Counted from the first letter of the stretch, positions 1-10,523 are shown. The stretch is DNA of 12,558 bases from a virus (UHGV-1300782); one strand, 5' to 3'. The notes: generated from the sequence alone by a model not told the origin. Translations and numbers: made by a program.

Positions 1-147
1 GGCGTCCGCTGGGTTATCGTTGGCCACATCGCGAGCTTCTTTGCTGACGAAAGCCCACTTAATGCCTTCCTGTAAGGTGCGGAACTTCCAGCTCATGAAT
101 CCGCATGCAGTAACGCAGTACCAACCGTTGATGATTTTCCACTGCAT
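1..147 (-). CDS. Hypothetical protein, N-terminal 49 codons only (gene runs off the left edge); first gene of the leftward early transcript
   Basis: Minus-strand ATG at 147-145 with GAGGT 8 nt upstream; reverse-complement translation MQWKIINGWYCVTACGFMSWKFRTLQEGIKWAFVSKEARDVANDNPADA stays open to position 1. Lies directly downstream of the PL-like promoter. Absent from the ORF track because it is truncated. No family recognised. Confidence 0.45.
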   Translation of the reverse strand, partial: MQWKIINGWYCVTACGFMSWKFRTLQEGIKWAFVSKEARDVANDNPADA

Positions 148-166
148 AACTTGTTACCTCGGTCTG

Positions 167-243
167 TTACCGTTGAGGTAATAATTATGCTTATTTGGTT
201 TGGTGTCAATAGATATGAGTTAAAAAAATTACCCGTAAGGTAA
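167..243 (-). promoter_or_regulatory. PL-like leftward early promoter bracketed by two operator palindromes
   Basis: Read on the minus strand: -35 TTGACA (plus 204-209), 17-nt spacer, -10 AATTAT (plus 181-186). Perfect palindromes TTACC-GTTGA-GGTAA at 167-181 (abutting the -10, over the start site) and TTACC-CGTAA-GGTAA at 229-243 (20 bp upstream of the -35). Operator centres are 62 bp apart. Confidence 0.6.
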
Positions 244-250
244 TCTATCT

Positions 251-280
251 GGCAATAAAAAAGCCGCCATGAGGCGGCTT
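251..280 (-). terminator. Intrinsic terminator of the repressor gene
   Basis: GC-rich hairpin AAGCCGCC-atga-GGCGGCTT (261-280) followed on the minus strand by TTTTATTGCC (reverse complement of 251-260); lies about 20 nt past the repressor stop codon. No U-tract on the plus strand, so unidirectional. Confidence 0.7.
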
Positions 281-300: not shown

Positions 301-885
301 TTATTGTTTGCTTTTTTCGTTCTGGTTGATGACAAATTCAATGTAACTTTCGATCTTTGCTTTCTCGGTTTCGGGTAACAATGCGTAGCGCGAGCGGTCA
401 TAGTTGATGGTCGCAGGGTCGTGCGGGTGAATCAGTAATTCATAGCCGTGACGCCCGAATGCGGATGCCACATTCTCCAGGGTGGAAATGGAAACGCTAA
501 CCTCATTGTTTAACAGGCGGCTGATTGTCACCTGGGCGACGCCGGATGCGCGGTGAAGTTTTCCCTGTGTTGAAAGGTCGCGGCTTTCGCTCATCCAGCG
601 TTCCAGGTTGTGAGCCGCCAGCTGACCAATGTCGCTTGGGCCGACAGGCTGAAAACCTTCCTGAGAAAGCGAGCGATCGATATCAAGCCAGTTACGGGGT
701 TTATTGGCGGCAGCTTCAATTTTTCGCGCAACCTGGTCGCCGATAACCTTCTTGCCAAGAGCCCAGCGGTTTACCAGATTTGCCTGAGTTCCAAGTTTTT
801 CTGCCATCCGCGTCTGAACACCATTGAATTCACGGTCGATCAAGTCGTTGAGATTTTGCCTGCGGACGTCCTGGATACTTTTCAT
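301..885 (-). CDS. Prophage immunity repressor, tandem helix-turn-helix, no recognisable S24 autopeptidase domain
   Basis: 194-codon ORF divergent from the cro-like gene, with operator palindromes on both sides. N-terminal segment QTRMAEKLGTQANLVNRWALGKK and C-terminal segment SGVAQVTISRLLNNEVSVSISTLENVASAFG both read as HTH units. No Ala-Gly cleavage site or Ser/Lys dyad motif seen. Own terminator at 251-280. No SD before the ATG. Confidence 0.7.
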   Translation of the reverse strand: MKSIQDVRRQNLNDLIDREFNGVQTRMAEKLGTQANLVNRWALGKKVIGDQVARKIEAAANKPRNWLDIDRSLSQEGFQPVGPSDIGQLAAHNLERWMSESRDLSTQGKLHRASGVAQVTISRLLNNEVSVSISTLENVASAFGRHGYELLIHPHDPATINYDRSRYALLPETEKAKIESYIEFVINQNEKSKQ

Positions 886-940: not shown

Positions 941-1014
941 TTACCCAACAGGTAAATGCACCTCATAGGTAACTATCCTTGATTTTTGTTACCTTATGGG
1001 TGAATATTTATTAT
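941..1014. promoter_or_regulatory. OR-like operator cluster with candidate rightward promoter
   Basis: Three sites between the divergent genes: TTACC-CAACA-GGTAA (941-955, perfect), GCACC-TCATA-GGTAA (958-972), TTACC-TTATG-GGTGA (989-1003). Candidate rightward promoter -35 TTGTTA (986-991), 17-nt spacer, -10 TATTAT (1009-1014), overlapping the third site. The leftward repressor promoter could not be placed with confidence. Confidence 0.55.
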
Positions 1015-1039: not shown

Positions 1040-1270
1040 ATGAGCGATAACGGACATTTCGATTTCAAAAAGCACTGGCTTGCACTTACTCCGGATGAGC
1101 GTGAAGCCTTCGCACAGGAAGCCGGAACGACGAGTCACTATATCCAGACTCACTTAACAGGTAAGCGCAAAATGCCAGGTAAAGTATTGATGAATGGGCT
1201 TTTTAAAGCCTGTAAAACAAGACAATGGCTGCGCTCAAAAGCAGAACTGGCATACTTCTTCTACTCATGA
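1040..1270 (+). CDS. Cro-like small HTH DNA-binding protein
   Basis: 76-codon ORF divergent from the repressor; HTH-like stretch REAFAQEAGTTSHYIQTHLTGKR. Assigned mainly by position and size; no clear SD upstream. Confidence 0.6.
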   Translation: MSDNGHFDFKKHWLALTPDEREAFAQEAGTTSHYIQTHLTGKRKMPGKVLMNGLFKACKTRQWLRSKAELAYFFYS

Positions 1271-3270: not shown

Positions 3271-3348
3271 ATTACCTTCTAGGTAATAAAATATTCTAAA
3301 ATCTATTGATTTCGTGTCTTATGTGGTTTTTAATTACCTCAGAGGTAA
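3271..3348 (+). promoter_or_regulatory. Second promoter-operator cassette, rightward, in front of the accessory gene block
   Basis: ATTACC-TTCTA-GGTAAT (3271-3287), -35 TTGATT (3306-3311), 17-nt spacer, -10 TTTAAT (3329-3334), then TTACC-TCAGA-GGTAA (3334-3348) abutting the -10. Operator centres are 62 bp apart, as at PL. The right half-site GAGGT also serves as the SD for the ATG at 3352. Confidence 0.6.
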
Positions 3349-3757: not shown

Positions 3758-4318
3758 ATGGAAAGTAATATCAAAGGGTTAGTTTACGCCGGGCATGAGA
3801 TGGCTTCGGAACTGAAAGCAGAATGTGGTGCCGTTGATATGCGTAGTGTGGCAAAGCTGATCAGCGATTTGGCAACGCAACTGGAAGTGCAACTGGTGCG
3901 TGCTAATGCGATGGCGTCGGAGAATGAGGCGTTGAAGTCGAACCTGATTTACTGGGGCGGCGAAGATTCAGGGGCTGTCAGAAGTCCGCTTGATTACGCC
4001 CGTGCAGCCGGGCTGGAATCTGGAGAGGAGTTTGAGATGCAAGTGGCAGCCAGAATGCCGAACCTGACTTATCGCGTTGTGTCGAATTCCCGATTCAGAA
4101 CAACAATAGAACTGGTTGACGGATCATTGCCGGAAACCCCAGCCACCGATGCTTTTCTGGCTGAAGTACGGGCGCAGGCGTTTAATGACCTTTGCTCGGC
4201 GTTCGTTAAACACGCGAATCTCGCGGGAATGGATGATGGTGAGCTAGTGAGTCTTAAATATGCGACGGACGCCCTGCTGCATTGTGCGGAACAGCTTCGC
4301 AAAGGAGGCAACCAGTGA
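3758..4318 (+). CDS. Hypothetical protein (186 aa)
   Basis: GAGGGT 4 nt before ATG 3758; stop overlaps the next gene's start (GTGA at 4315-4318). No family recognised. Confidence 0.6.
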   Translation: MESNIKGLVYAGHEMASELKAECGAVDMRSVAKLISDLATQLEVQLVRANAMASENEALKSNLIYWGGEDSGAVRSPLDYARAAGLESGEEFEMQVAARMPNLTYRVVSNSRFRTTIELVDGSLPETPATDAFLAEVRAQAFNDLCSAFVKHANLAGMDDGELVSLKYATDALLHCAEQLRKGGNQ

Positions 4319-7012: not shown

Positions 7013-7225
7013 ATGCCAAAAATACGCTACGACCTTGAAGATATGAGAGATAACTCAGCAAATTTTCCGAAAGAGGTTAAATTTCTCATGCATAAGTATG
7101 GTTGCGCCAGGAGGGATATAGTTATCGACAGTCAGCACCCTTGCGGCGAGGATGTAATTTTCATTCGCGGTAAATGGGAAGGGTATCTTGACGAGAGTTT
7201 TTACGATGAATTTGATGGACTTTGA
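7013..7225 (+). CDS. Hypothetical small protein (70 aa)
   Basis: ATG 7013 preceded by GAAGGTG; the ORF track's GTG at 6992 is in frame and cannot be excluded. Stop at 7223-7225 is followed by a terminator. Confidence 0.5.
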   Translation: MPKIRYDLEDMRDNSANFPKEVKFLMHKYGCARRDIVIDSQHPCGEDVIFIRGKWEGYLDESFYDEFDGL

Positions 7226-7230
7226 ATACT

Positions 7231-7257
7231 GCCGCCAACTATGGCGGCTTTATTTTG
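7231..7257 (+). terminator. Intrinsic terminator between accessory block and terminase genes
   Basis: Hairpin GCCGCCA-acta-TGGCGGC (7231-7248) followed by TTTATTTTG (7249-7257). Confidence 0.7.
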
Positions 7258-7260
7258 CAT

Positions 7261-7292
7261 GGTACTATTACCACAACGGTAACTATTACCAC
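7261..7292. repeat. Direct repeat GGTA(A)CTATTACCAC x2 upstream of terS
   Basis: Exact 10-mer CTATTACCAC at 7265-7274 and 7283-7292. Each copy forms an inverted-order palindrome of the operator half-sites (GGTA-CTAT-TACC at 7261-7272; GGTAA-CTA-TTACC at 7278-7290). Confidence 0.65.
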
Positions 7293-7302
7293 GGTGGTTA
7301 TG

Positions 7303-7896
7303 ATGCCTGCTGAACCTAAAACCTATAAACGCAAATCAACGCAATTTAAGCCACTAACAGCAATGCAGGAGGCTTATTGCCAGTCATACATCAAAACGCC
7401 TGAAAACCAGACTCAGGCAGCGATTAACGCAGGATTCTCCCCAAATACAGCGGCAGTTAAAGCCAGTGTCATGATGCGCGATGAACGCATTCAAAAACGG
7501 ATTGCCGAGCTGATGGAAGAGCGCAACAAACGAATGCGCGTCAGTGCTGATTACGTTCTCATGCGCCTGGTGGAGATCGACCAGATGGACGTGATCGACA
7601 TCCTCAACGACGATGGGAGCCTTAAGCCAATCCGCGAGTGGCCGAAAATCTGGCGCACTACGCTTAGCGGCTTTGATCTGTCATCGACCATCATGAACAT
7701 GAACGAGGATTCGATAGAGACAATCCTCAAAAAAATTAAATGGCCTGACAAGGTGAAGAACCTCGAACTGATTGGTAAGCACGTCGACGTCAACGCATTC
7801 AAAGAACGCCTGGATGTTAATGTGAATGTGACAATTGCTGATCGCATAGCAGCAGCCAGGAAGCGACTCAAAGAACGTCAGGATGGTAATCAGTGA
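7303..7896 (+). CDS. terS: Terminase small subunit (Terminase_2-type)
   Basis: Segment LTAMQEAYCQSYIKTPENQTQAAINAGFSPNTAAVKASVMMRDERIQKRIAELM matches the small-terminase pattern (LT..QE.FC.EY ... QAAI.AGYS). Start placed at ATG 7303 (or 7300) after GGTGG; the TTG 7222 extension in the ORF track reads through the terminator and repeats. Stop overlaps the terL start (GTGA). Confidence 0.7.
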   Translation: MPAEPKTYKRKSTQFKPLTAMQEAYCQSYIKTPENQTQAAINAGFSPNTAAVKASVMMRDERIQKRIAELMEERNKRMRVSADYVLMRLVEIDQMDVIDILNDDGSLKPIREWPKIWRTTLSGFDLSSTIMNMNEDSIETILKKIKWPDKVKNLELIGKHVDVNAFKERLDVNVNVTIADRIAAARKRLKERQDGNQ

Positions 7897-9458: not shown

Positions 9459-9866
9459 CTAGAAAATAATTTCATCAAATGCAGCATTTATTGCCTTTGC
9501 TTCGCTAATGGCGCCTTGTTTATCGACAATAGCTTTTTTACCAAGCACCTCGGCAAGGCACTGTAGCTTCATGTTGTATAAGTGTTCGCTCATGTAATCA
9601 TTATCACTTTTTGCTTTAGCGCAAACAGAGCGAGAAATATCAAACACATCGCCTTTTTCCATTTCAGAACGTTGTGCTGTTATCCAGTCATGGAACGTAA
9701 CGCTAGTACCATGGTCTTCTCTAAGAGTTAACCCGGTCAGCCCCTCACTCTGAATTACTTCGTAATGCATTTCATTACCAGCAAAAACGCCATAAAAAAT
9801 GCAGTCTTCAGCCTGAACGATACGAGAATATTTTAATGGCCATTCATTTAGATACTTAGCCAACAT
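9459..9866 (-). CDS. Hypothetical protein (135 aa), reverse-oriented AT-rich insert gene (moron candidate)
   Basis: Minus-strand ORF. Start placed at ATG 9866-9864 (MLAKYLNEWPLKY...) because the longer TTG-initiated version (9929) translates the upstream terminator hairpin. No good SD. My hand count over 9461-9640 gives about 37-42% GC against about 48% in a terL sample (8401-8460). No predicted membrane segment by eye; no family recognised. Confidence 0.5.
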   Translation of the reverse strand: MLAKYLNEWPLKYSRIVQAEDCIFYGVFAGNEMHYEVIQSEGLTGLTLREDHGTSVTFHDWITAQRSEMEKGDVFDISRSVCAKAKSDNDYMSEHLYNMKLQCLAEVLGKKAIVDKQGAISEAKAINAAFDEIIF

Positions 9867-9916: not shown

Positions 9917-9993
9917 GAACTGGAAGCAATGAGTTATGCCTTCCGTGGCTGTACTGGTTTACAGCATGAAGTCATCGCAATGGCGTCCTGCTG

Positions 9994-10080: not shown

Positions 10081-10157
10081 TGGCGTGGCATGCAGGATTC
10101 GAACCTGCGACCAACCGCTTAGAAGGCGGTTGCTCTGTCCAGCTGAGCTAATGCCAC
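10081..10157 (-). tRNA. tRNA-Arg (anticodon UCU)
   Basis: The reverse complement folds by hand into a 77-nt cloverleaf: acceptor GTGGCAT/ATGCCAC, D-stem GCTC/GAGC, anticodon stem ACCGC/GCGGT with loop CTTCTAA (anticodon TCT), variable loop TGGTC, T-arm GCAGG-TTCGAAT-CCTGC, discriminator G, encoded CCA. Confidence 0.85.
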
Positions 10158-10479: not shown

Positions 10480-10523
10480 TTACCTGAAAGGTAATAATTC
10501 GTGCGTTAAATGTCAACTGTCTA
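10480..10523 (-). promoter_or_regulatory. Third promoter-operator cassette, leftward, feeding the tRNA/insert unit
   Basis: Minus strand reads TAGACA-G-TTGACA ... AATTAT-TACC-TTTCA-GGTAAC. Operator TTACC-N5-GGTAA at plus 10480-10494 abuts a -10-like AATTAT (plus 10494-10499) exactly as at PL. -35 candidates are TAGACA (plus 10518-10523, 18-nt spacer) or TTGACA (plus 10511-10516, spacer too short). A lone GGTAA half-site sits at 10552-10556, where a second operator 62 bp away would lie. Confidence 0.45.

Follow-up and report, generated by a model that had tools for sequence, protein, structure and literature searches.

The immunity repressor encoded at positions 301 to 885 of the window, by which we mean the whole 12,558-nucleotide stretch of viral DNA analysed here (UHGV-1300782), most likely owes its inactivation to a small antirepressor under LexA control, and not to RecA-stimulated self-cleavage; this reading follows the best-studied relatives of the protein. 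We call the gene rep and its product Rep. We consider it very probable that Rep serves as lysogeny repressor in a phiV10/epsilon15-like E. coli prophage, a temperate podovirus of the genus Uetakevirus, that it is the orthologue of Rep from the Salmonella phage SPC32H, and that its induction runs through the antirepressor Ant. Three lines of evidence are considered below: the relatives and domain layout of Rep, the operators that surround its gene, and the ant genes of closely related phages.

Identity and genomic setting of Rep

The rep gene (301..885, minus strand) is a clean open reading frame that starts with ATG, ends in a stop codon at 301-303 and encodes 194 amino acids. An intrinsic terminator with an 8-bp GC-rich stem and then a T run follows it (261..280, minus strand). 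Taken whole, the window shares 97-98% identity with the E. coli phages PAS61, phiv142-3, HEMP4, ZX5, TL-2011b and phiV10, all of which are epsilon15-like podoviruses assigned to the genus Uetakevirus. At the protein level, the HEMP4 repressor is 100% identical to Rep, and those of phiV10, ZX5 and PAS61 are 99.5% identical. Identity is 75-78% in Enterobacter phages, approximately 45% in Klebsiella phages, and 43% in epsilon15 and SPC32H (the SPC32H value by tblastn).

Homology to the SPC32H protein extends over nearly the whole chain. In a phmmer search of PDB sequences, Rep residues 1-190 matched residues 2-197 of 5D50_A, a chain named 'Repressor', at E=3.5e-42, and Rep matched 5D4Z, the C-terminal fragment of the SPC32H repressor, at E=3.6e-20. 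Both entries come from the Salmonella temperate phage SPC32H; 5D50 is the Rep-Ant complex and 5D4Z is Rep(92-198). A Foldseek comparison of the Rep model with the PDB likewise placed 5d50 and 5d4z on top, followed by XRE/HTH_3 proteins, and the C-terminal half of the model matched 5d4z_H with a TM-score of 0.79. Judged by this full-length homology, by the operator layout and by the lack of an S24 domain, Rep belongs to the SPC32H Rep family.

The genes around rep fit a lambdoid-style immunity and replication region, with a divergent Cro-like gene, a DnaT/O-like initiator and a lambda P-like loader; the terminase and portal genes come after these. The cro-like early regulator gene (1040..1270, plus strand; 76 aa) matches phrog_35, 'transcriptional repressor', at E=5.6e-13, and its product is 76% identical to SPC32H_042. 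The first leftward early gene (2-147, minus strand, with its start at 147) matches phrog_898.

The best PHROG matches of Rep itself are generic regulator families, and NCBIfam matches to RstR, HigA and TreR were dropped as a family assignment, being generic and sub-threshold. The weak HigA and RstR model matches could be taken to mean that Rep is some other XRE-type regulator or an antitoxin and not an immunity repressor, a reading to which we attach almost no probability. It is at odds with the position of rep, which faces away from a cro-like gene across a stretch of operators and promoters, with the orthology of Rep to the experimentally defined Rep of SPC32H, and with the annotation of the epsilon15 orthologue as a repressor. 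It is also at odds with experiment on a nearly identical protein: overexpression of ZX5 ORF21, which is 99.5% identical to Rep, shut off the lytic genes, reduced lysis-gene transcription by more than 99.9% and abolished free phage (PMC9782041).

Domain organization of Rep

The first-pass annotation, made from the sequence alone, described Rep as an immunity repressor that consists of two helix-turn-helix (HTH) halves and lacks an autopeptidase domain. The second part of this description is borne out. Pfam searches yielded no Peptidase_S24 match in Rep even at E<=1, no Ala-Gly or Cys-Gly dipeptide occurs anywhere in its 194 residues, and no S24 fold is present among the Foldseek PDB matches of the model; the domain search and structure prediction that had been suggested as a check thus place no S24 peptidase fold in the C-terminal half. 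The first part holds only in so far as there are indeed two HTH units, which are recognized both by Pfam (HTH_3 at E=1.2e-9, matched in two stretches of which the better covers residues 106-147, and an HTH of the Cro/YdaS type over residues 21-61, E=3e-4) and in the model, but the protein appears to divide into three parts and not two.

The AlphaFold2 model, built with 37 homologues and having a mean pLDDT of 75.9, contains helical bundles at residues 4-59 and 85-151, a disordered linker at 74-82 and C-terminal helices at 164-193. Together with the sequence, it suggests a basic N-terminal HTH domain followed by a linker, an HTH_3 unit resembling the domain termed MDD in SPC32H Rep, and a short C-terminal domain. 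The predicted N-terminal DNA-binding domain (NDD; residues 1-72, 670..885 on the minus strand, with approximate model boundaries) is of the Cro/YdaS type, with modelled helices at 4-19, 24-31, 35-43 and 50-59, and its residues N36, R40 and W41 are invariant in the family alignment. The flexible linker (residues 73-84; 634..669, minus strand) has pLDDT values below 50 at 74-82, carries indels in the family alignment and is the least conserved segment of the protein, with a column conservation of 0.36. The second HTH_3-like unit (residues 85-152; 430..633, minus strand), which includes the HTH_3 match at 106-147, is the apparent counterpart of the SPC32H Rep MDD. The remaining residues (153-194; 304..429, minus strand) align with the C-terminus of 5D50 and 5D4Z and would, by homology, form the domain for tetramerization and Ant binding (CAD). 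Residues 156-162, where the CAD strands are expected, have pLDDT values below 50 and are modelled without the beta strands reported for the crystal. With approximate segment boundaries, identity to SPC32H Rep is 53% over residues 1-72, 33% over 73-84, 32% over 85-152 and 50% over 153-194.

This predicted layout parallels the one given for SPC32H Rep in PMC9986798, namely an N-terminal DNA-binding domain, an MDD that dimerizes, and a CAD that both tetramerizes and binds Ant. Since Rep is only 43% identical to the solved protein, and 32% in the middle domain, its own tetramerization and Ant binding are predictions made by analogy.

Could Rep nonetheless be a cryptic self-cleaving repressor that depends on RecA and carries a divergent protease domain beyond detection? 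Nothing speaks for this beyond the general frequency of the mechanism in temperate phages. Besides the missing S24 match and cleavage dipeptides, the C-terminal half consists of helices only and resembles 5D4Z rather than the S24 beta fold, and members of the Rep family are nearly always found alongside a LexA-controlled Ant. Kim and Ryu reportedly found in 2013 that SPC32H Rep is not cleaved, which counts against self-cleavage as well. We regard this explanation as extremely unlikely.

Operators and promoters

The symmetric TTACC/GGTAA half-sites to which the first pass had drawn attention far exceed what chance would give. With at most one mismatch allowed, the window holds nine copies of TTACC-N5-GGTAA where 0.22 would be expected; none of 200 shuffles reached nine. 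On the strength of their sequence and placement, the (A)TTACC-N5-GGTAA(T) palindromes are real operators that lie on both sides of rep and recur before other transcription units.

On the left side of rep, OL-a (TTACCCGTAAGGTAA, 229..243) is located just upstream of the -35 element of a leftward promoter and OL-b (TTACCGTTGAGGTAA, 167..181) abuts its -10 element. This PL-like sigma-70 promoter (181..209, minus strand) reads TTGACA, 17 nt, AATTAT and agrees with the consensus at 10 of 12 positions. The two operators that bracket it are exact sites 62 bp apart, a spacing that is kept in ZX5, SPC32H, epsilon15, and E. coli and Raoultella prophages. This strong promoter lies between the rep terminator and the first leftward gene and would serve the leftward early genes.

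Three sites occupy the rep/cro intergenic region on the right side. The distal operator (TTACCCAACAGGTAA, 941..955) is followed by a degenerate middle site with two mismatches (GCACCTCATAGGTAA, 958..972), placed as in SPC32H and epsilon15, and by a proximal operator with one mismatch (TTACCTTATGGGTGA, 989..1003) that overlaps the -35 element and spacer of the rightward promoter. The latter, a PR-like promoter of the cro-like gene (986..1014, plus strand), reads TTGTTA, 17 nt, TATTAT and matches the consensus at 9 of 12 positions. The same three-site layout, with spacings of 17 and 30-31 bp, is seen in SPC32H and epsilon15.

Further sites precede other transcription units. A pair 62 bp apart (3272-3286 and 3334-3348) lies upstream of a DUF1064/resolvase-like gene and has syntenic counterparts in ZX5, SPC32H and epsilon15, where the annotation is protein_bind 'repressor'. 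A second pair, 18 bp apart (7268-7282 and 7286-7300), immediately precedes the likely terS start at 7303; ZX5 and epsilon15 have syntenic counterparts, of which that in epsilon15 is again annotated as a repressor site. The operator upstream of the portal operon (10480..10494) is syntenic with the epsilon15 site at 2931-2947, also an annotated repressor site. In all, seven ATTACC-N5-GGTAAT sites carry the feature protein_bind 'repressor' in the GenBank entry of epsilon15; they precede terS, the resolvase gene, the tailspike gene and the portal operon or lie on the PL side. The sites between the repressor and cro genes and the second site of some pairs are unmarked there, yet visible in the sequence. 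In ZX5, where 91.4% of the genome is coding, all 14 of the 14 operator sites fall between genes. Prophages of Raoultella and E. coli with Reps of 54-59% identity repeat the layout flanking rep, and in a Serratia prophage the same operator sequence flanks rep.

From these arrangements we infer that Rep is the protein bound at the TTACC-N5-GGTAA sites of the window, and the Cro-like protein probably shares them. A comparison of the N-terminal recognition helix with the operator for covariation (Serratia, Raoultella and a variant from E. coli, 54-59% identical) was uninformative because the operator is the same in all homologues compared. A full-text literature search for the operator sequence ATTACC/GGTAAT returned nothing relevant.

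The presence of two HTH-type units in one chain had led the first-pass annotation to propose that a Rep monomer reads both half-sites, with one of the tandem units on TTACC and the other on GGTAA. The invariance within the family of R123, in helix 3 of the second unit, would suit this proposal. The half-sites are exact inverted repeats, however, and thus call for two identical reading heads related by two-fold symmetry. Rep's two units are without detectable similarity, giving no BLASTP alignment at E<=100, and they differ in charge: across 38 family members, the mean net charge is +4 for the N-terminal domain and approximately neutral for the second unit. In the solved homologue, the second unit dimerizes; PMC9638917 describes SPC32H Rep as tetrameric on DNA, with weak binding by dimers and with the pairs of DNA-binding domains coming from different dimers. 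A tandem monomer is thus very unlikely. The second HTH unit of Rep is real at the level of the fold, but in the solved relative it is a dimerization module, and by analogy it may be one here.

LexA boxes and the antirepressor gene

No LexA box (CTGT-N8-ACAG) is present in the immunity region, positions 1-1700, as the first pass had also noted. The sole near match in this region (1210-1225) has one mismatch and lies inside a coding region, at chance level; the whole window holds five one-mismatch matches against 4.07 expected. An exact match at 9949-9964 was not counted as part of the switch, as it has neither an adjoining Ant-like gene nor a convincing promoter. The 12.5-kb window contains no Ant homologue because the expected locus lies approximately 16 kb beyond its right end. 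The only candidate within the window, the C-terminal CAEQLRK of the open reading frame at 3758-4318, was rejected since its 8-residue match is too short (E=0.026 in a set of four sequences). Both ant and its LexA box would lie outside the window; that this prophage has them is deduced from its relatives.

The ant gene of SPC32H encodes 86 amino acids (19676-19936, minus strand) and is divergent from the tailspike gene. At the same locus, ZX5 (L005 2095-2343) and PAS61 encode homologues that are 88% and 87% identical to SPC32H Ant. In ZX5 and PAS61 the gene is immediately preceded by a perfect LexA box, CTGTATATTTATACAG, and the box of SPC32H ant, CTGTATAAACATACAG, is placed likewise. HEMP4, with a Rep 100% identical to that of the window, also has Ant and a LexA box, TACTGTATATTTATACAGTT. 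The box, approximately 20 bp upstream of ant in the relatives, is kept in HEMP4, phiV10, Tyrion, BUCT554 and epsilon15, with one mismatch in a Klebsiella phage. In SPC32N, the spontaneously lytic sibling of SPC32H, the ant LexA box differs from the SPC32H one by a change of CTGT to CTTT. This agrees with the findings reported for these phages by Kim and Ryu (2013) and with the review statement that production of Ant follows cleavage of LexA (PMC7380047).

The association of the two genes holds over a wider sample. An Ant homologue, 58-100% identical to ZX5 Ant, is encoded in 35 of the 36 phage records that carry a full-length Rep, and the one exception is a record holding only a fragment of a phage. 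Among 5426 complete E. coli genomes, rep is present in 537 and ant with a LexA box in 529, and the two genes have a matching split between chromosomes and plasmids. That the prophage would elsewhere carry a LexA-boxed antirepressor gene had been anticipated in the first-pass annotation; such a gene was found in every complete close relative. The accompanying expectation, that induction proceeds by an antirepressor and not by self-cleavage, is the most likely reading given these LexA-boxed homologues.

Some phiV10-like phages also carry a Bro-N antirepressor, which could contribute to induction. One could envision that in these phages the larger Bro-N protein (ZX5 ORF4, phiV10 p23) replaces or supplements the small Ant. 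Overexpression of ORF4 lowered the prophage titre 1000-fold and rep transcription by 75% (PMC9782041), the C-terminal 80 residues of ORF4 are Ant-like (41% identity, E=8e-19; phrog_450), and a Rep operator (L005 2043-2057) separates ant from the ORF4 operon. On the other side, no LexA box adjoins ORF4, and the small Ant is found in every complete member of the group. PAS61 and the Salmonella members each have a single Ant-like place, so the second gene is absent from them, and SPC32H is inducible through Ant alone (PMC7380047, PMC9638917). We consider such a role for the Bro-N protein unlikely on balance, though with a real share of the probability, and favour the small LexA-controlled Ant as the inducer.

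Proposed route of induction

The evidence suggests the following scheme for the small Ant. In the lysogen, Rep would be a tetramer whose N-terminal domains, acting in pairs, read the palindromic operators, as in the solved homologue. One tetramer could hold operator pairs at the fixed spacings observed (62 bp; 17 plus 31 bp; 18 bp), and such tetramers would repress early, and probably also late, transcription. During the SOS response Rep itself would stay uncleaved. DNA damage would inactivate LexA, which would then leave the box approximately 20 bp upstream of ant, a small gene (85-86 aa) predicted to lie divergent from the tailspike gene, approximately 16 kb past the right end of the window. 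Ant would bind the C-terminal domain of Rep and split the tetramer into dimers, the DNA would be released, and lytic growth would follow.

The later steps of this scheme are modelled on SPC32H. As presented in PMC7380047, which cites Kim and Ryu 2013, Ant is made after LexA cleavage and the repressor is inhibited by protein-protein contact. PMC9638917 describes a tetrameric Ant that takes two SPC32H Rep dimers and so breaks the Rep tetramer into dimers.

Relation to known systems

SPC32H Rep/Ant (Kim and Ryu 2013; Kim et al. 2016) is the closest system. It has in common with the phage of the window its genus, the position of the repressor gene, full-length Rep homology, a Rep layout apparently in three parts, the operator sequence and spacing, and a Cro-like neighbour that is 76% identical, and the window's close relatives have an Ant 87-88% identical to that of SPC32H at the same locus behind the same LexA box. 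The two differ in host, which is E. coli here, and in the middle domain of Rep, only 32% identical. Some phiV10-like relatives have in addition a fusion of Bro-N with an Ant domain, whereas SPC32H lacks it.

ZX5 ORF21 is a single residue apart from Rep (99.5% identity) and occupies the same genomic context. The ZX5 paper assigned DNA binding to a C-terminal 'TreR-like' HTH and named the Bro-N protein ORF4 as antirepressor, and it gave the small, LexA-controlled homologue of Ant no name beyond hypothetical protein (PMC9782041); the small Ant seems to have been overlooked there. The major repressor of epsilon15, gp38, is 43% identical to Rep, and its GenBank record notes an HHpred match to 5d50_A.

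The first-pass annotation compared the mode of induction with that of Gifsy-type and P2/186-type prophages. The logic is indeed the same: in 186 CI/Tum and in the Gifsy/Fels-2 pairs, a non-cleavable repressor is matched with a small LexA-controlled antirepressor, as outlined in PMC7380047. The likeness is mechanistic only, and the closest system is SPC32H Rep/Ant. These are other phage types with another oligomeric architecture and no sequence relationship to Rep, and no 186 CI or Tum-type chain appeared among PDB sequence matches at E<=10 or by Foldseek. Like lambda CI and LexA-type repressors, Rep has an N-terminal HTH, leftward and rightward operator/promoter flanks and paired operator sites; unlike them, it has no S24 domain, cleavage site or Ser/Lys dyad, and its C-terminal part is helical.

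Implications

The observation that this repressor has no autopeptidase domain is real but ordinary, and it is already known, since the literature or GenBank already contains the mechanism, the operators, the structure and an E. coli protein of 99.5% identity. Studies published from 2013 to 2016 on the same phage genus are said to have established the architecture, the lack of self-cleavage and the route from LexA to Ant to Rep. The 99.5% identical E. coli protein was tested as a repressor in 2022.

The prophages concerned are nevertheless widespread and sparsely labelled. Approximately 10% of complete E. coli genomes (537/5426) carry rep, and RefSeq labels rep a 'helix-turn-helix domain-containing protein' and ant a 'hypothetical protein'. 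No NCBIfam or Pfam family covers Ant or the rep/ant pair. Correct naming of the two genes would help to predict the SOS inducibility of these prophages.

One operator sequence, one spacing pattern and a highly conserved Ant are found across the sampled Rep family, in which the Reps are 43-100% identical and the hosts are Escherichia, Salmonella, Klebsiella, Enterobacter, Serratia and Raoultella. This pattern, if functional, raises the possibility, which we put forward tentatively and hold somewhat short of probable, that Rep-family prophages form a single immunity and induction group in which Rep clamps nearly all transcription units through approximately 14 operators. Lambdoid phages, in contrast, have many immunity types. 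If the prophages do form one group, direct control by Rep would include the late operons, and the Ant or Rep of one prophage would cross-induce or cross-repress any other member.

Putative operators for the 194-aa immunity repressor Rep (TTACC-N5-GGTAA palindromes) lie upstream of nearly every transcription unit, the terminase and portal operons included (window 167-243, 941-1003, 3272-3348, 7268-7300 and 10480-10494). Their spacings are fixed, with pairs at 62 bp and one pair at 18 bp. Given this distribution and regular spacing, the sequence suggests that late genes are directly repressed by the same repressor, from the operators that precede the terminase and portal operons. The operators themselves are already known: the GenBank record of phage epsilon15 marks the sites as repressor sites.

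The operators also bear on the start of terS. As listed, this ORF (window 7222-7896) encodes 224 aa from a TTG at 7222. Because two operator sites (7268-7300) fall within its 5' extension, and because the annotation of the E. coli phage ZX5 gives a shorter product of 197 aa that begins directly after the equivalent sites, the terS start is probably the ATG at 7303. A tRNA-Arg gene with anticodon TCT (window 10081-10157, minus strand) lies between the terminase and portal genes, an arrangement shared with Salmonella phage SPC32H.

Operator sequence is constant where Rep is not. It is the same in Serratia, Raoultella, E. coli variant and Salmonella prophages whose Reps are merely 43-59% identical, and operator spacing is likewise the same in all but the Serratia prophage. 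Conservation of the antirepressor Ant (88%) and of the Cro-like protein (76%) is far above that of Rep (43%). Nothing in these comparisons points to a split into different immunity types.

The window contains a single exact LexA-type box (9949-9964, CTGTACTGGTTTACAG). Its sequence also satisfies the stricter form CTGTA-N6-TACAG (chance expectation, about 0.012 matches), and the box is kept in ZX5 and in the close relative PAS61; SPC32H has no counterpart. Along the minus strand, the box sits between terminator-like hairpins at 10036-10001 and 9916-9901, with the tRNA-Arg gene upstream and a 135-aa ORF (9459-9866, phrog_4846) downstream. A search for a convincing promoter at the box found none.

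Complete E. coli genomes carry rep in 537 cases and ant in 529, about 10% for each gene. In NC_017646.1, for example, the ant region is at 2946237-2946588 and the rep region lies within 2971232-2975160. RefSeq names the products 'helix-turn-helix domain-containing protein' and 'hypothetical protein', respectively, and Pfam and NCBIfam both lack a model dedicated to either gene. In the window, the C-terminus of ORF 3758-4318 includes the octapeptide HCAEQLRK (4280-4303), which resembles the Ant C-terminus YCAEQLRK. At 8 residues the match is too short to count as homology to Ant; the likeness may reflect chance or a mosaic joint.

The small LexA-controlled Ant of ZX5 (L005 2089-2346) is annotated merely as a 'hypothetical protein'. 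ORF4 (L005 1078-1773), the Bro-N protein that the ZX5 study tested as an 'anti-repressor', has a C-terminal domain that shares homology with the small SPC32H-type Ant, at 41% identity across 74 residues. Upstream of ORF4 is a Rep operator (L005 2043-2057) rather than a LexA box. With an Ant-like domain encoded behind a Rep operator, a feed-forward release of antirepressor is possible, in which lifting of Rep would free ORF4 and, in turn, more antirepressor would be released.
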